Translations under genes and position numbers: made by a program
Shown here: piece by piece, positions 8,296 to 62,682 of the stretch
Layout of the letters: every line of letters begins with the position of its first letter
How positions within the stretch are numbered: position 1 is the stretch's first letter
Sequence record: NC_054927.1
Strand: one strand, 5' to 3'
DNA from: Escherichia phage vB_EcoM_Ozark
Length of the DNA stretch: 64,000 bases
The notes under the pieces: model-generated
What the model saw: only the letters and a program-made list of their open reading frames with translations
Told to the model about the DNA's origin: nothing
The model's database searches: none

Positions 8296-8310
8296 TCTTT
8301 GACGATTTAA

Positions 8311-8326
8311 GGGACCTTCGGGTCCC
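8311..8326 (+). terminator. intrinsic terminator after gene 23
   Basis: GGGACC-UUCG-GGUCCC tetraloop hairpin followed by a U-rich tract. Confidence 0.7.
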
Positions 8327-8343
8327 TTTAGTTGTTTTTATGG

Positions 8344-13146: not shown

Positions 13147-14658
13147 ATGACTGACATTAAAGTACATTTTTATGATTTTAGTCACGTGAGAATTGATTGT
13201 GAAGAAAGTACATTTCATGAACTCCGTGATTTCTTTAGCTTTGAAGCTGATGGGTATCGTTTTAATCCGAAATACAAATATGGCCACTGGGATGGACGAA
13301 TCCGTCTTTTAGATTATAATCGTCTTCTTCCATTCGGCTTAGTCGGGCAAATTAAAAAGTTCTGTGATAACTTTGGCTATAAAGCCTGGATTGACCCACA
13401 AATTAACGAAAAAGAAGAATTATCAAGAAAAGATTTTGATGAATGGCTTTCTAAATTAGAAATCTATTCAGGAAATAAAAGAATTGAACCACACTGGTAT
13501 CAAAAAGATGCAGTGTTCGAAGGATTAGTTAATCGTCGTAGAATTCTTAATCTTCCAACATCCGCAGGTAAATCGTTAATTCAAGCTTTGCTTGCGCGAT
13601 ATTATTTGGAAAATTATGAAGGTAAAATTCTTATCATTGTTCCAACAACTGCCTTAACAACTCAGATGGCTGATGACTTTGTTGACTATCGTTTATTCAG
13701 TCATGCAATGATAAAGAAAATTGGTGGCGGAGCATCAAAAGATGATAAATATAAAAATGATGCACCAGTCGTTGTTGGTACATGGCAAACTGTAGTTAAA
13801 CAACCGAAAGAGTGGTTCTCCCAATTTGGAATGATGATGAATGATGAATGTCATCTTGCTACAGGAAAAAGTATTTCATCTATCATATCAGGTTTAAATA
13901 ACTGCATGTTCAAATTTGGTCTATCTGGTTCATTACGTGATGGCAAAGCCAATATCATGCAGTATGTTGGAATGTTTGGTGAAATATTTAAGCCAGTAAC
14001 GACTTCTAAATTAATGGAAGATGGACAAGTAACTGAGCTAAAAATTAATAGTATTTTTCTTCGCTATCCCGATGAGTTTACTACTAAATTAAAGGGAAAA
14101 ACTTACCAAGAAGAAATAAAAATTATTACTGGGCTTAGTAAAAGAAATAAATGGATCGCTAAATTAGCTATTAAGCTTGCACAAAAAGATGAAAACGCTT
14201 TTGTCATGTTTAAACATGTATCACATGGTAAAGCTATTTTCGATTTAATTAAAAATGAATACGATAAAGTTTATTACGTATCAGGGGAAGTTGATACCGA
14301 AACTCGAAACATAATGAAAACCTTAGCTGAAAACGGTAAAGGAATAATTATAGTAGCTAGTTATGGTGTATTTTCTACTGGTATTTCAGTTAAAAATCTG
14401 CATCATGTTGTTTTAGCGCACGGTGTTAAATCTAAAATTATTGTATTGCAAACAATAGGTCGTGTATTACGTAAGCATGGTTCTAAAACAATCGCAACGG
14501 TCTGGGACCTCATTGATGATTGCGGTGTTAAGCCAAAATCTGCTAATACAAAAAAGAAATATGTTCATTTGAACTATCTTTTAAAACACGGCATTGATCG
14601 TATTCAGCGCTACGCAGATGAAAAATTTAATTACGTAATGAAAACAGTTAATTTATAA
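13147..14658 (+). CDS. uvsW: UvsW SF2 DNA helicase (recombination and repair)
   Basis: 503-aa ORF with Walker A (LPTSAGKS) and DECH box (MNDECH) motifs. Confidence 0.9.
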   Translation: MTDIKVHFYDFSHVRIDCEESTFHELRDFFSFEADGYRFNPKYKYGHWDGRIRLLDYNRLLPFGLVGQIKKFCDNFGYKAWIDPQINEKEELSRKDFDEWLSKLEIYSGNKRIEPHWYQKDAVFEGLVNRRRILNLPTSAGKSLIQALLARYYLENYEGKILIIVPTTALTTQMADDFVDYRLFSHAMIKKIGGGASKDDKYKNDAPVVVGTWQTVVKQPKEWFSQFGMMMNDECHLATGKSISSIISGLNNCMFKFGLSGSLRDGKANIMQYVGMFGEIFKPVTTSKLMEDGQVTELKINSIFLRYPDEFTTKLKGKTYQEEIKIITGLSKRNKWIAKLAIKLAQKDENAFVMFKHVSHGKAIFDLIKNEYDKVYYVSGEVDTETRNIMKTLAENGKGIIIVASYGVFSTGISVKNLHHVVLAHGVKSKIIVLQTIGRVLRKHGSKTIATVWDLIDDCGVKPKSANTKKKYVHLNYLLKHGIDRIQRYADEKFNYVMKTVNL

Positions 14659-14670
14659 GGGCTTCGGCCC
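14659..14670 (+). terminator. tetraloop hairpin between uvsW and uvsW.1
   Basis: GGGC-UUCG-GCCC directly after the uvsW stop. Confidence 0.45.
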
Positions 14671-14683
14671 TTTGGAGAAAAAG

Positions 14684-15872: not shown

Positions 15873-16268
15873 TACTCTATTACTAGAAGCCAATTGCAGT
15901 TTTATCTGCTCAATATCATCAGGGTTATCGATGACCGAAAAGCGTATTTCTACTATCAGAGTATAATCATCATAAACGGGTATCACATTAACTGCTAATT
16001 TATCAATACGTGGCTCATAGTTTCTTACTGCGCTTTCGATATTGCGCTCAACCGTGTCAGCAGTAAGAGGAGTCATATTTTCAAAAAGCTGGTCTGATAA
16101 ATCACATCCAAATTCAGGGTCAAACGGTCTTGAACCTTTTCTTGTTGTAATAATTCCTAAAAGGCTATTTTTAATTGACCTTAATCCAAGAGATCTGGAA
16201 ACGTCTTTGTCCCAGTCCATTTTCATTTCTGGGTCAATGTCAGAATAAAGCTTATTAATATTTGCCAT
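15870..16268 (-). CDS. 25: baseplate wedge protein
   Basis: 132-aa ORF; T4-sized gp25. Confidence 0.88.
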   Translation of the reverse strand: MANINKLYSDIDPEMKMDWDKDVSRSLGLRSIKNSLLGIITTRKGSRPFDPEFGCDLSDQLFENMTPLTADTVERNIESAVRNYEPRIDKLAVNVIPVYDDYTLIVEIRFSVIDNPDDIEQIKLQLASSNRV

Positions 16269-16894
16269 TATAATAACTCAAAGAACTCTTTGAGGCCTCT
16301 TATTACATGAGCATGGGTTTTTCCACACTCTGGACATTTAATTGGAACAGCCAAATAAACGGTAGGCTTTAAAAGCATATCTTTTATAGCTACAATATCT
16401 GACTCTGTGATGATAGAATATAAATCTTCCAACTCTTTTTCATTTAAGTCTTCAATTGGAATGCTTTCCCCGTTAGCATGAATCGTTTCTATACATGATA
16501 CTATCATATGGGCTATATTTTTATCATCAAAAATTTTGGGGTAATGGAACTTAATTTTAATGTCACCTAGTGTATACCAGAGGTCTTCTGGTGCATCTAT
16601 TTGTGTATGTAATAGATTTATATGGGTTGGTATTTCAGTTCCACAGGTGCACTTCCAGGAGTTTTCGTGATTAACTTCACCAAGAGAATGTGCCCATAAA
16701 TGAATCAGCAATAGTTCTGATTCTTGACGGTTTAAATCTTTTGCATTTGTGCAGTCTTTGATTAGCTTTTTAACAATTACTTCTACAGAACCATTATTTT
16801 TTGCAGTAATAAGTTCTAGATATTCTTTAAGCGTGAATGCGCGACAATTGATTATTTTAGAACCAACTCTCACATCAAATTTGTATTCATACAT
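16268..16894 (-). CDS. 26: baseplate hub protein
   Basis: 208-aa ORF with AGGAG SD; T4-sized gp26. Confidence 0.85.
16277..16299 (-). promoter_or_regulatory. split Shine-Dalgarno: GAGG, then 18-nt hairpin, then AUG of gene 25
   Basis: Minus strand reads GAGG-C-CUCAAAG-AGUU-CUUUGAG-UUAUUAUA-AUG. Confidence 0.5.
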
Positions 16895-23184: not shown

Positions 23185-23188
23185 CAAT

Positions 23189-23206
23189 GGGGACCGAAAG
23201 GTCCCC
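23189..23206. terminator. bidirectional terminator between convergent gene 54 and the 96-aa ORF
   Basis: GGGGACC-GAAA-GGUCCCC hairpin flanked by T-run. Confidence 0.65.
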
Positions 23207-23212
23207 ATATTT

Positions 23213-38785: not shown

Positions 38786-40373
<1,588 letters not shown>

Positions 40374-40381
40374 AATAAAAT

Positions 40382-40400
40382 GGGCCTTGCGGCCCACTCC
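40382..40400 (-). promoter_or_regulatory. split Shine-Dalgarno / terminator-like hairpin between nrdB and denA
   Basis: Minus strand reads UAAGGAG-U-GGGCC-GCAA-GGCCC-AUUUUAUU-AUG; SD and AUG are separated by 23 nt. Confidence 0.5.
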
Positions 40401-40903
40401 TTAAAAATATTTTTTAAAACTCATCATAACTTTATCATCAACATCATTATCAATCTGTGCAACAAGGTAAGATGACAGTTCTACTTCTTGTGGCGCGGAT
40501 TGAACATTATCAGAATTAAGATATTCACGAATCCAAGGATATGGGTGTTTAACCGGAGCATCGGTAATTGGGCATGGAAGACCACACTGTTTCATACGAG
40601 ATACAGTTAAGTAATCAATAAAGCTCCACATGCTATTTGTATTTAATCCAGGAACATCGCCATCTTTAAATAAATGAACTGCCCAATCTTTTTCTTGGCG
40701 GTTAACTTCCATGAAAATATCAACTGCTTCTTGTTCACACTCTTGAGCAATTTTAACCCATTCATCGCCATCAGTGCCAAGTTGAAGTTGACGAATAATA
40801 TATTGGGTGCCCTTGAGGTGGAGCTGTTCATCACGAGCAATGAACTTCATAATCTTGGCATTACCTTCCATGATTTCCATGTTCTTATGGAAGTTAAAGG
40901 TAC
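40401..40903 (-). CDS. nrdB: ribonucleotide reductase small subunit, exon 2
   Basis: C-terminal NrdB sequence (MEGNAKI...); 3' splice site placed after G at 40904 so the junction reads FYVSFAC-TFNFHKNMEIMEG. Confidence 0.75.
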
Positions 40904-41994
40904 CGTTATGTTCGATTGAGCTCGCTAATTCTCAACCCGTTCTCTTATGAACTGCTACATATTACTATGCAGACCAGACTATATCACAATCCCAGAGGGA
41001 TTCTCCCCATTTCGAGTCGCTTGACCCTACGTCCGAAGACTAGTCGTTGAACCTTGCTTTGCAATTGTCGCCGTGCCATCGTTTATATGTTGATGGTGAT
41101 AAATCTTTCTTATCACAATATGGACAATTCAATTGAATTCTATTTGGATTTAATTTACATCTGTCATTATGTTTTAGATAAAATCCAGGACCTTTACCAA
41201 TGTGACCGCAGAAATCACATGTGATTTCTTTTTGTGCAGGATGGGTCCCGTTCTTAACCATTTCTAATGTTTTTGCTGATGTTCTTTTCTTATGGTCTTC
41301 TGACAAGAAATGATGTGAACCGTCATTTACCCGTTTTGATTGAGTTTCTGACTGCATTTTACCACCGCAAAATACATGAGTACCTTCTTTTATAGCTGCA
41401 ATATTGCGTTCTTTAACTTTTGCAATATGCTCAGCTTGTTGAAAATTATGTATACCTAATGCAACTCTATTTAAATTAGATTTACGTTGTATTTCACCAC
41501 CTAAAAGATGAAATGTACCATTTTCTATCTTAGATTTAATAGAGGCAATATTTTTAGCTCGTACTTCAGGGATATTAAAAACCTGGATTTCTCTAGATTT
41601 TGCGGCTTTAGAAGCTAATTCAGAAATTTCTTCAGGAGAATATTTCATTCTGAGCTTTATAGCATGACAAGCCTGGTAGTCTTTTTGAGCTAAATGTATA
41701 TCATAATGTTCCTGTATAGAAAGGCACATCAAATTATCTAAATCATTATTTTCACGGTTACCGTCTTTATGATGGATTTCGTATGTTCTTCCATCAGAAT
41801 CTTTAGGTATAGGTCCGTTAGCATCTATCCAAATTTTTCTATAGTTCAATTGTGCATCCTCTTAAAAGTATAATCATATTTATATTATACTAATTAAAGG
41901 TGCAAGCAAAACCTTGGCTGCTAGTTTTCCTATAAAGGACTTTCCAGCAATTAAAGGAGTTTTCGATAAACGTTACCGTTTAAAGGCGCATTTT
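40904..41994 (-). mobile_element. group I intron in nrdB (about 1091 nt) carrying an HNH homing endonuclease ORF
   Basis: nrdB reading frame interrupted between conserved FYVSFA and CTFNFH blocks; 5' exon ends in U and intron ends in G. Confidence 0.75.
41040..41849 (-). CDS. intron-encoded HNH homing endonuclease (I-TevIII-like, full length)
   Basis: 269-codon ORF with HNH signature (EIHHKDGNRENN...HYDIH) and C-terminal Cys clusters; initiator appears to be TTG with GAGGA SD 7 nt upstream. Confidence 0.75.
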   Translation of the reverse strand: MNYRKIWIDANGPIPKDSDGRTYEIHHKDGNRENNDLDNLMCLSIQEHYDIHLAQKDYQACHAIKLRMKYSPEEISELASKAAKSREIQVFNIPEVRAKNIASIKSKIENGTFHLLGGEIQRKSNLNRVALGIHNFQQAEHIAKVKERNIAAIKEGTHVFCGGKMQSETQSKRVNDGSHHFLSEDHKKRTSAKTLEMVKNGTHPAQKEITCDFCGHIGKGPGFYLKHNDRCKLNPNRIQLNCPYCDKKDLSPSTYKRWHGDNCKARFND

Positions 41995-47277: not shown

Positions 47278-48104
<827 letters not shown>

Positions 48105-61800: not shown

Positions 61801-62103
61801 GTAGGTGCAAACGCCAACGCTAAATTCACTGGAACCGTGAACGGTGCTACTGCAGGGTCGAATATAGCCAAAACTTCTTCAGACGGTGCTCATACTCATA
61901 CTTGGTCTGGTACTACAAGCACTACAGGTAACCATGCTCACACAGTAGGTATTGGTGCTCATACCCATACTGTAGGTATCGGTGCTCATACCCACACGGT
62001 AGCAATTGGCTCGCATGGTCATACTATCACTGTAAATAGTACAGGTAATACAGAAAACACGGTTAAAAACATTGCTTTTAACTATATCGTTCGTTTAGCA
62101 TAA
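58828..62103 (+). CDS. 37: long tail fibre distal subunit (receptor-recognising)
   Basis: 1091-aa ORF ending ...[10 protein letters not shown] with a C-terminal HxH array; longer than the 1026 aa recalled for T4 gp37. Confidence 0.9.
61594..61653 (+). repeat. tandem 30-nt coding repeat in gene 37 ([10 protein letters not shown] twice) with synonymous codon divergence
   Basis: Two adjacent units encode identical decapeptides but differ at about 10 of 30 nucleotides; a third degenerate unit follows. Confidence 0.7.
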
Positions 62104-62123
62104 GGAGAGGGGCTTCGGCCCCT
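62104..62123 (+). promoter_or_regulatory. split Shine-Dalgarno: GGAG, then 16-nt UUCG hairpin, then AUG of gene 38
   Basis: Reads UAAGGAG-AGGGGC-UUCG-GCCCCU-UCUAAAU-AUG. Confidence 0.6.
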
Positions 62124-62130
62124 TCTAAAT

Positions 62131-62682
62131 ATGAAAATATATCATTATTATTTTGACACTAAAGAATTTTACAAAGAAGAAAATTACAAACCGGTTAAAG
62201 GCCTCGGTCTTCCTGCTCATTCAACAATTAAAAAACCTTTAGAACCTAAAGAAGGATATGCAGTTGTATTTGATGAACGTACTCAGGATTGGATTTATGA
62301 AGAAGACCATCGCGGAAAACGAGCATGGACTTTTAATAAAGAAGAAATTTTTATAAGTGAAATTGGAAGCCCGGTTGGTATAACTTTTGATGAGCCTGGC
62401 GAATTTGATATATGGACTGATGACGGTTGGAAAGAAGACGAAACATATAAGCGAGTTTTAATTCGTAATAGAAAAATTGAAGAATTATATAAAGAGTTCC
62501 AAGTTTTAAATAATATGATTGAAGCTTCTGTCGCCAATAAAAAGGAAAAATTTTATTATAAAAACCTTAAGCGGTTCTTTGCTCTTTTAGAAAAGCATGA
62601 GCATTTAGGTGGTGAATTCCCTTCATGGCCTGAAAAAGAACGGAAACCTTGGTATAAGCGTTTATTCAAGCATTACGTATAA
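62131..62682 (+). CDS. 38: tail fibre assembly chaperone (T4-type gp38)
   Basis: 183-aa ORF starting MKIYHYYFDTKEFYKEENYKP; T4-type chaperone rather than T2-type adhesin. Confidence 0.88.
   Translation: MKIYHYYFDTKEFYKEENYKPVKGLGLPAHSTIKKPLEPKEGYAVVFDERTQDWIYEEDHRGKRAWTFNKEEIFISEIGSPVGITFDEPGEFDIWTDDGWKEDETYKRVLIRNRKIEELYKEFQVLNNMIEASVANKKEKFYYKNLKRFFALLEKHEHLGGEFPSWPEKERKPWYKRLFKHYV

Follow-up and report, generated by a model that had tools for sequence, protein, structure and literature searches.

Natural ribosome-binding sites in which a hairpin bridges the gap between the Shine–Dalgarno (SD) sequence and the start codon are usually illustrated by only two cases, genes 38 and 25 of phage T4. 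In these genes, structures between the SD and the AUG bring the two closer together, from 22 nt down to 5 nt at gene 38 and from 27 nt down to 11 nt at gene 25, and destabilising mutations reduce initiation (PMC3014915). The split site of gene 25, at the 26-25 junction, was described by Nivinskas 1999 and by Malys and Nivinskas 2009 (as cited in PMC3014915); close T-even phages alone retain its structure, which distant T4-related phages lack (PMC3014915). This review of split ribosome-binding sites does not mention denA, the gene for endonuclease II (EndoII). Here, we analyze the leader of denA, directly downstream of nrdB, in a stretch of 64,000 nt from Escherichia phage vB_EcoM_Ozark (NC_054927.1), hereafter the window. 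The window derives from a T4-like (Tequatrovirus) genome resembling phage RB3, and a 1.2-kb query around the site matched hundreds of T-even phages at 95-99% identity. Our comparisons indicate that denA is probably a third T4 example of this known type of split ribosome site.

The denA leader lies on the minus strand and reads UAAGGAG-U-GGGCC-GCAA-GGCCC-AUUUUAUU-AUG. The UAA stop of nrdB exon 2 (40401-40403) overlaps an SD, UAAGGAG (40397-40403), that complements the 3' end of the 16S rRNA. The GGAG of this SD (40397-40400) is followed by a single linker U (40396), the 5' arm of a stem, GGGCC (40391-40395), a GNRA-type loop, GCAA (40387-40390), and the 3' arm, GGCCC (40382-40386). By fold and covariation, the hairpin extends to U-GGGCC-GCAA-GGCCC-A (40381-40396), with a core of five G-C pairs and a closing U-A pair. 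The U-rich tail AUUUUAUU (40374-40381), which has no SD-like triplet, is the spacer to the denA AUG (40371-40373) and a possible terminator U-tract. From this AUG to its stop codon, denA spans 39963-40373 and codes for an endonuclease II of 136 amino acids with 100% identity to the T4 record X04140. The GGAG stands 23 nt and the UAA 27 nt from the AUG, and the stop/start overlap of classic coupling is absent from this junction in the window.

No SD was found at the canonical distance from the denA AUG; across 74 T4 coding sequences, 53 have an SD match of at least 4 nt at -18 to -4. An AAGG at -11 was considered as the SD of denA and rejected, as its bases belong to the loop and the 3' arm of the hairpin; moreover, it occurs only in the variants with a GCAA loop. 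The sole SD available to denA is UAAGGAG, which overlaps the nrdB stop at 23 nt from the AUG. If the tetraloop hairpin (14-16 nt) loops out, the single-stranded distance from SD to AUG would fall to a workable 7-9 nt: 9 nt if the stem is counted as 5 bp, and 7 nt if it is counted as 6 bp. This would be the same mechanism as described for gene 38 and, with a weaker stem, for gene 25; the 30S subunit would have to accommodate the hairpin, which would then enhance initiation. On balance, we think it fairly likely that the denA leader is a split SD of the gene 38 type, to which partial termination has been added in the T4-type phages.

Evidence for this comes from relatives. Two DenA protein searches of viral contigs yielded 57 distinct loci. 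Where DenA is at least 60% identical and nrdB lies directly upstream, the element was found in every locus but one (41 loci, about 25 distinct leaders). These leaders share a constant layout: a stop codon overlapping AAGG, 0-3 nt, a stem of 4-7 bp, a tetraloop, a tail of 6-10 nt (usually 7-8 nt) and the AUG. The nrdB stop is UAA and once UAG (L077), overlapping or abutting the AAGG, which is itself retained in nearly all of the distinct leaders. The loop is UUCG in most of them and GCAA or GUAA in the T4-type phages, with UUUG, UUAG and CUUGA in single cases. The linker and tail vary in sequence, with AAGG, stem and tail length being kept, and none of the tails contains AGG, GGA or GAG. The gap from SD to AUG ranges from 22 to 28 nt, and the interval from stop to ATG is 26, 27, 28 or 32 nt; hence, the spacer is non-coding.

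Covariation was assessed twice, on 20 distinct leaders and then on 29. Compensatory changes were recovered in four of the six stem pairs, with 22-29 cells changed on both sides. Pairing was seen in 95% of the stem cells versus 77-80% in shuffles, and none of 500 shuffles reached the observed pairing or covariation score. As a control, sliding the stem partners collapsed the covariation signal. That a third, covarying case is conserved in leader-bearing T4-like phages whose DenA proteins share only 60-79% identity suggests that the arrangement has been selected and is not accidental.

The arrangement is absent in Krischvirus, Tulanevirus and Slopekvirus, where denA follows another open reading frame (ORF). 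In these distant relatives, denA either overlaps the upstream ORF or, in Krischvirus, is preceded by a hairpin and then by a separate canonical SD. The distribution of the element thus resembles that of the gene 25 structure, being present in close relatives and missing from distant ones. In the Krischvirus loci L039, L082 and L084, the region before denA reads GGCGGGA-GAAA-UCCCGCC plus UUUGUUGUG, followed by the canonical SD in GAGGAAAGGAUA-AUG; given this order of a hairpin and then its own SD, the hairpin and the SD are separable in evolution.

Within the window, the closest counterpart is the leader of gene 38 (62101-62133, plus strand), UAAGGAG-A-GGGGC-UUCG-GCCCC-UUCUAAAU-AUG. As at denA, the upstream UAA (here of gene 37) overlaps UAAGGAG, and 1 nt, a 5-bp G-C stem, a tetraloop and an 8-nt tail follow, with a 23-nt gap to the AUG. 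We built a covariance model from 20 denA leaders only and ran it over the 64-kb window: its only other strong full-length match was the gene 38 leader, from UAAGGAG through AUGAAA (38.9 bits, rough E 1e-4). All other hits scored at most 23.8 bits (E at least 0.05), and the best of them cover the hairpin only. The two leaders in the window differ in the loop, GCAA in T4-type denA versus UUCG in gene 38, but the denA consensus of the relatives, GGGGC-UUCG-GCCCC, has almost the same sequence as the gene 38 hairpin. In timing, the two genes differ, denA being pre-replicative and gene 38 late. The split SD of gene 38 has experimental support cited in PMC3014915, whereas that of denA is predicted from sequence comparison. 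In the window, the GGGGC/GCCCC stem of the gene 38 hairpin (62109-62122, plus strand) is perfect and the gap is 23 nt, but one C is missing in the T4 reference (L101, ~47620-47650; GGGGCUUCGGCCC), hence the 22 nt of the literature.

The gene 25 leader (16266-16299, minus strand) reads GAGG-C-CUCAAAG-AGUU-CUUUGAG-UUAUUAUA-AUG and shares with denA and gene 38 the order of SD, 1 nt, hairpin, 8 nt and AUG. It differs from denA in having a 7-bp, A/U-rich stem with a weak fold, a 27-nt gap and no terminator-like U-tract. Further, in T4 (L101, 3803) the stop of gene 26 overlaps the gene 25 AUG as UAAUG, and the SD and hairpin of gene 25 consequently lie inside the gene 26 coding sequence, whereas those of denA and gene 38 occupy non-coding spacers.

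We then asked how readily such an arrangement would arise by chance. Folding of the denA leader gave -16.4 kcal/mol (z = -3.5), a value equalled in 1 of 200 shuffles; the hairpin alone accounts for -11.6 kcal/mol, and its probability of forming in the ensemble is 1.00. A strict scan of both strands required a hairpin whose stem had 5 bp or more, four or more of them G-C, and whose loop had 3-6 nt; an SD had to stand 0-4 nt before the hairpin, and an ATG had to follow it after a tail of 2-12 nt. Exactly two ATGs matched, those of denA and gene 38. Dinucleotide shuffles gave a mean of 0.15 matches and reached two in 2 of 100 cases. A looser scan added gene 25, and its only other match before an ORF of at least 100 amino acids was at a TTG, apparently within gene 37. 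The arrangement at denA is thus real and not due to chance. The original prediction, made from the letters of the window, had proposed a split SD at denA by analogy with a leader of the same 23-nt gap at gene 38 and a similar one, of 27 nt, at gene 25. The sequence, coordinates and 23-nt distance of the denA leader all agreed on re-counting, both comparisons held, and folding of the leaders found a stable hairpin at denA and a weak one at gene 25 (z = -1.8). The split SD itself was favoured by all of the computational tests, with support from the covarying hairpin, the layout conserved in about 25 leaders, the conserved AUG and the match of gene 38 to the denA-leader model.

To place these leaders in a wider context, we surveyed phage contigs in IMG/VR with the exact pattern AAGG-N(1-4)-GGGGCTTCGGCCCC-N(6-10)-ATG, or AAGG-N(1-4)-GGGGCUUCGGCCCC-N(6-10)-AUG, which occurred in at least 120 stretches. 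Of these, 80 were examined; only two of the 80 are denA loci. The ATG opens an ORF of at least 50 amino acids in 73; in 74, the AAGG lies no more than 10 nt from the end of an upstream ORF with 50 codons or more; and both hold in 69. Pfam searches with five of the upstream proteins identified two major capsid proteins (PF05065) and one weak, sub-threshold gp32-like match. The series stop-AAGG-GGGGCUUCGGCCCC-6-10 nt-ATG recurs at junctions unrelated to denA, including those after major capsid genes (L102-L181, L222-L295). In an unbiased control sample that required GGGGCUUCGGCCCC with an ATG 6-10 nt downstream but no AAGG, a 4-nt SD within 8 nt upstream of the stem was present at 15 of the 41 ATGs that open long ORFs versus 1 of the 39 others (Fisher's test, p = 1.4e-4, or ~0.04 after a rough by-hand grouping into families). 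This survey, which is small and redundant, suggests that the layout is widespread in phages. We tentatively raise the possibility that denA and gene 38 are instances of a widespread phage cassette, in which the stop of a gene with high expression is followed by an SD, a tetraloop hairpin of great stability, ~8 nt and the next AUG. A single element would then attenuate the message upstream, or stabilise it, and also make downstream translation depend on the folded hairpin. If the survey holds, gene callers and models of ribosome-binding sites that need an SD within ~15 nt would systematically miss or misplace such starts.

A split SD presupposes that denA starts at the AUG, and the T4 RefSeq entry (NC_000866.4) has it otherwise: there, denA is 137517-137951, 144 codons from an in-frame GTG. 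In the window, this GTG lies within the SD and stem (40395-40397, minus strand), 24 nt upstream of the AUG that gives the 136-amino-acid form. Were denA to start at this GTG (40397-40395), the hairpin would be coding sequence for a 144-amino-acid protein. The frame is indeed open from the GTG, and in the L008 group an ATG, likewise in frame, takes its place. However, the GTG overlaps the SD, leaving no spacing for SD-directed initiation, and many relatives lack an NTG, which in L007, L011 and L022 lies out of frame. The varying stop-to-ATG interval also speaks against it: spacer lengths across relatives differ by non-multiples of three, and substitutions in the leader track base-pairing rather than codon structure. 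The conserved DenA protein sequence begins MK(E/D)IA, and the 136-amino-acid form is that of X04140 (the original T4 record), of most annotations in the relatives and of the crystallised enzyme, whose construct in PDB 2WSH begins MKEIATEY. The comparison thus favours the AUG as the conserved start of denA; we rejected the upstream GTG on these comparative grounds and regard initiation there as very improbable. The T4 reference annotation of the denA start is probably wrong, and the comparison points to an annotation fix.

The hairpin might alternatively serve nrdB alone, as an intercistronic terminator or a stabiliser of the mRNA 3' end, with denA being translated without the upstream SD, for instance through S1 binding to the U-rich tail. 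In favour of this, the AT-rich 64-kb window has ~16 GC-rich tetraloop hairpins, mostly with UUCG or GNRA loops, several of them followed by an ordinary SD. The denA hairpin is one of these and resembles the GC-rich C(UUCG)G and GNRA intercistronic hairpins of T4, which Tuerk et al. reportedly described in 1988. Most of the hairpins in the window precede the SD of the next gene, whereas the SD comes before the hairpin only at denA and gene 38. The Krischvirus leaders, too, retain a hairpin before denA and then use their separate SD. As for the terminator itself, the T4-type stem of five G-C pairs plus U-A is directly followed by UUUUAUU, a good U-tract, and the homologous site is annotated as a predicted terminator in two public GenBank records. 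A score of the d'Aubenton-Carafa type, approximate in value, is +24.7 for T4-type denA; by the same formula, it is negative for most relatives and -21 for gene 38, whose tail UUCUAAAU, unlike that of denA, is not a good U-tract.

Two observations argue against a general terminator role: the U-tract is poor in most relatives, with 2 to 7 U in the tail, and L030/L031 retain the hairpin with only 2 U. A consensus terminator scan also did not call the denA hairpin, which we do not count as a negative; a G-T-tolerant extension of the stem is suspected of absorbing the U-tract. What is conserved instead is the AAGG, the stem and the tail length. Moreover, none of the leaders has gained an SD within its tail, and denA would be silenced by an efficient terminator placed 8 nt ahead of a promoterless AUG. 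In the control sample of phages above, real gene starts are also enriched for an SD immediately 5' of the stem. We therefore consider it rather unlikely that the hairpin acts solely on nrdB. A bidirectional terminator was also rejected, as the plus strand has ACUCCUUAAAAA after the hairpin and no U-tract.

Termination and a split SD could nevertheless coexist. No sigma-70-like, MotA-type or late promoter was found between the promoters of the nrdB intron and the denA AUG, and the hairpin ends 8 nt before this AUG. With no denA promoter past the hairpin, every denA mRNA must read through it. Termination, if it occurs, can therefore only be partial, and its effect would be to reduce the expression of denA compared with nrdB. 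The suggestion in the original prediction that the hairpin also ends nrdB transcripts thus stands for the T4-type phages on sequence (UUUUAUU, the positive score and the two annotations) but does not carry over to most relatives or to gene 38, which have no convincing U-tract. Termination at the denA hairpin is plausible in T4-type phages only, and only as a leaky site. There, the hairpin and UUUUAUU would probably have a further role, ending some of the nrdB transcripts by leaky intrinsic termination and stabilising their 3' ends, with denA carried only by the read-through transcripts, which would fit a low need for the nuclease compared to ribonucleotide reductase. One 30-nt element could in this way set the ratio of abundant NrdB to potentially toxic EndoII, through both transcription and translation.

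A precedent for such leakiness exists in the same region. The intrinsic terminator inside mobE in the nrd region is leaky, with a measured partial termination of ~30-50% (PMC2790892). The same paper shows a band of ~4 kb that contains nrdA and mobE, and its size would fit an end at the denA hairpin. Like the denA hairpin, the mobE terminator is a short tetraloop hairpin with a short poly(U) in the nrdA-nrdB transcription unit, and its partial termination is the behaviour proposed for the denA hairpin. The mobE element differs in having a 9-nt stem, in lying within a coding region and in having been mapped by 3' rapid amplification of cDNA ends and RNase protection, whereas the denA hairpin lies within the ribosome-binding region and its terminator is predicted from sequence. 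The literature searched yielded no 3'-end map for T4.

Some of our results weigh against a split SD at denA. First, in the ensemble, the T4-type SD has an unpaired probability of only ~0.21, being mostly G-U paired to the U-tract; because of this pairing, the hairpin could dampen initiation instead of enhancing it. Second, one lineage (L026/L074, a single contig, IMGVR_UViG_2974786931_000001) has lost the spacer and hairpin, and its nrdB TGA overlaps the denA ATG as ATGA, with no SD. On account of this lineage, the element is dispensable, and coupling to nrdB translation is workable in its place. Third, about a quarter of T4 genes have no clear SD, such that an SD-free AUG is possible for denA as well. 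Fourth, the literature searched held no toeprint, reporter assay, N-terminal sequence or 3'-end map for denA.

The first of these could be taken further, to a structure that represses denA: the U-tract would pair with the GGAG and hide the SD, and little of the host-DNA nuclease would be made. The minimum-energy structure does lengthen the stem in this manner, with GGAGU pairing weakly with AUUUU via G-U pairs, at the -16.4 kcal/mol given above versus the -11.6 kcal/mol of the core. Yet this extension of G-U and A-U pairs is worth only ~5 kcal/mol, presumably less than the duplex of a 7-nt SD with the anti-SD, and it is not conserved. The accessibility of the SD varies among relatives between 0.05 and 0.77 without any pattern, and conserved sequestration of the SD was rejected for this reason. 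A repressive role is thus unlikely, and we would assign it only a slight probability. A second candidate involving the GGAG, a site for the endoribonuclease RegB (whose motif it is per PMC9409239), was rejected as a conserved feature: GGAG occurs in the T4-type leaders, but the relatives have AAGGAA, AAGGAU, AAGGU or AAGGC.

The hairpin-less lineage has a bearing on another proposal, namely that denA is translated mainly by termination and reinitiation, the SD holding ribosomes that have ended nrdB and the hairpin bringing the AUG close, with no new recruitment of 30S subunits. The ATGA overlap of this lineage is the classic coupling arrangement, and in phages further removed denA likewise overlaps the ORF before it. 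In addition, the stop overlaps the SD in every leader, as it does at the gene 37/38 junction, and the stem starts 5 nt after the stop; judging by the ribosome footprint, it would sit just at the border of the mRNA entry channel, where it would not have to melt. Still, a stop overlapping the SD of the next gene is common in compact phage genomes, and this proposal is a variant of the split SD rather than an alternative to it, in that both the SD and the hairpin are still required. We hold it improbable as the main route to DenA; nonetheless, given the overlap of stop and SD in every leader and the ATGA of the hairpin-less lineage, reinitiation by ribosomes leaving nrdB may contribute to initiation at the split SD.

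Neither a split SD at denA nor a link of denA to this mechanism was mentioned in the literature searched, and an earlier remark in the older T4 literature is possible. Rfam has no relevant family for the leader; a weak match to L20_leader (E = 0.12, far below the gathering score) was dismissed as chance, and a match to a group I intron is the nrdB intron.

That intron contains a full-length ORF of 269 amino acids for I-TevIII (41040-41849, minus strand), the copy in T4 itself being truncated and defective (294 nt). Two promoters lie just upstream of the I-TevIII ORF, one with the late motif TATAAATA (41884) and one of the middle type (41908). On the other side of denA, directly after its stop, lies a candidate middle promoter with a MotA-box-like sequence, TGCTTCCACAAGGAATGTGGTACTAT (39962-39937, minus strand), which contains a small inverted repeat, CCACA...TGTGG; this candidate could drive rnlA independently of nrdB-denA transcription. 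Elsewhere in the window, GC-rich tetraloop hairpins are found, for example, at 8309-8328 (plus strand), 11271-11254 (minus strand) and 23187-23208, and those at 14657-14672 (plus strand) and 31685-31670 (minus strand) have the SD of the next gene after them. The hairpin at 27775-27752 (minus strand) is followed by UUUAUAAAUAG, which resembles the late promoter motif TATAAATA, and the one at 32567-32548 (minus strand), with its strong U-tract UUUUUAUUUU, has the appearance of a full terminator.

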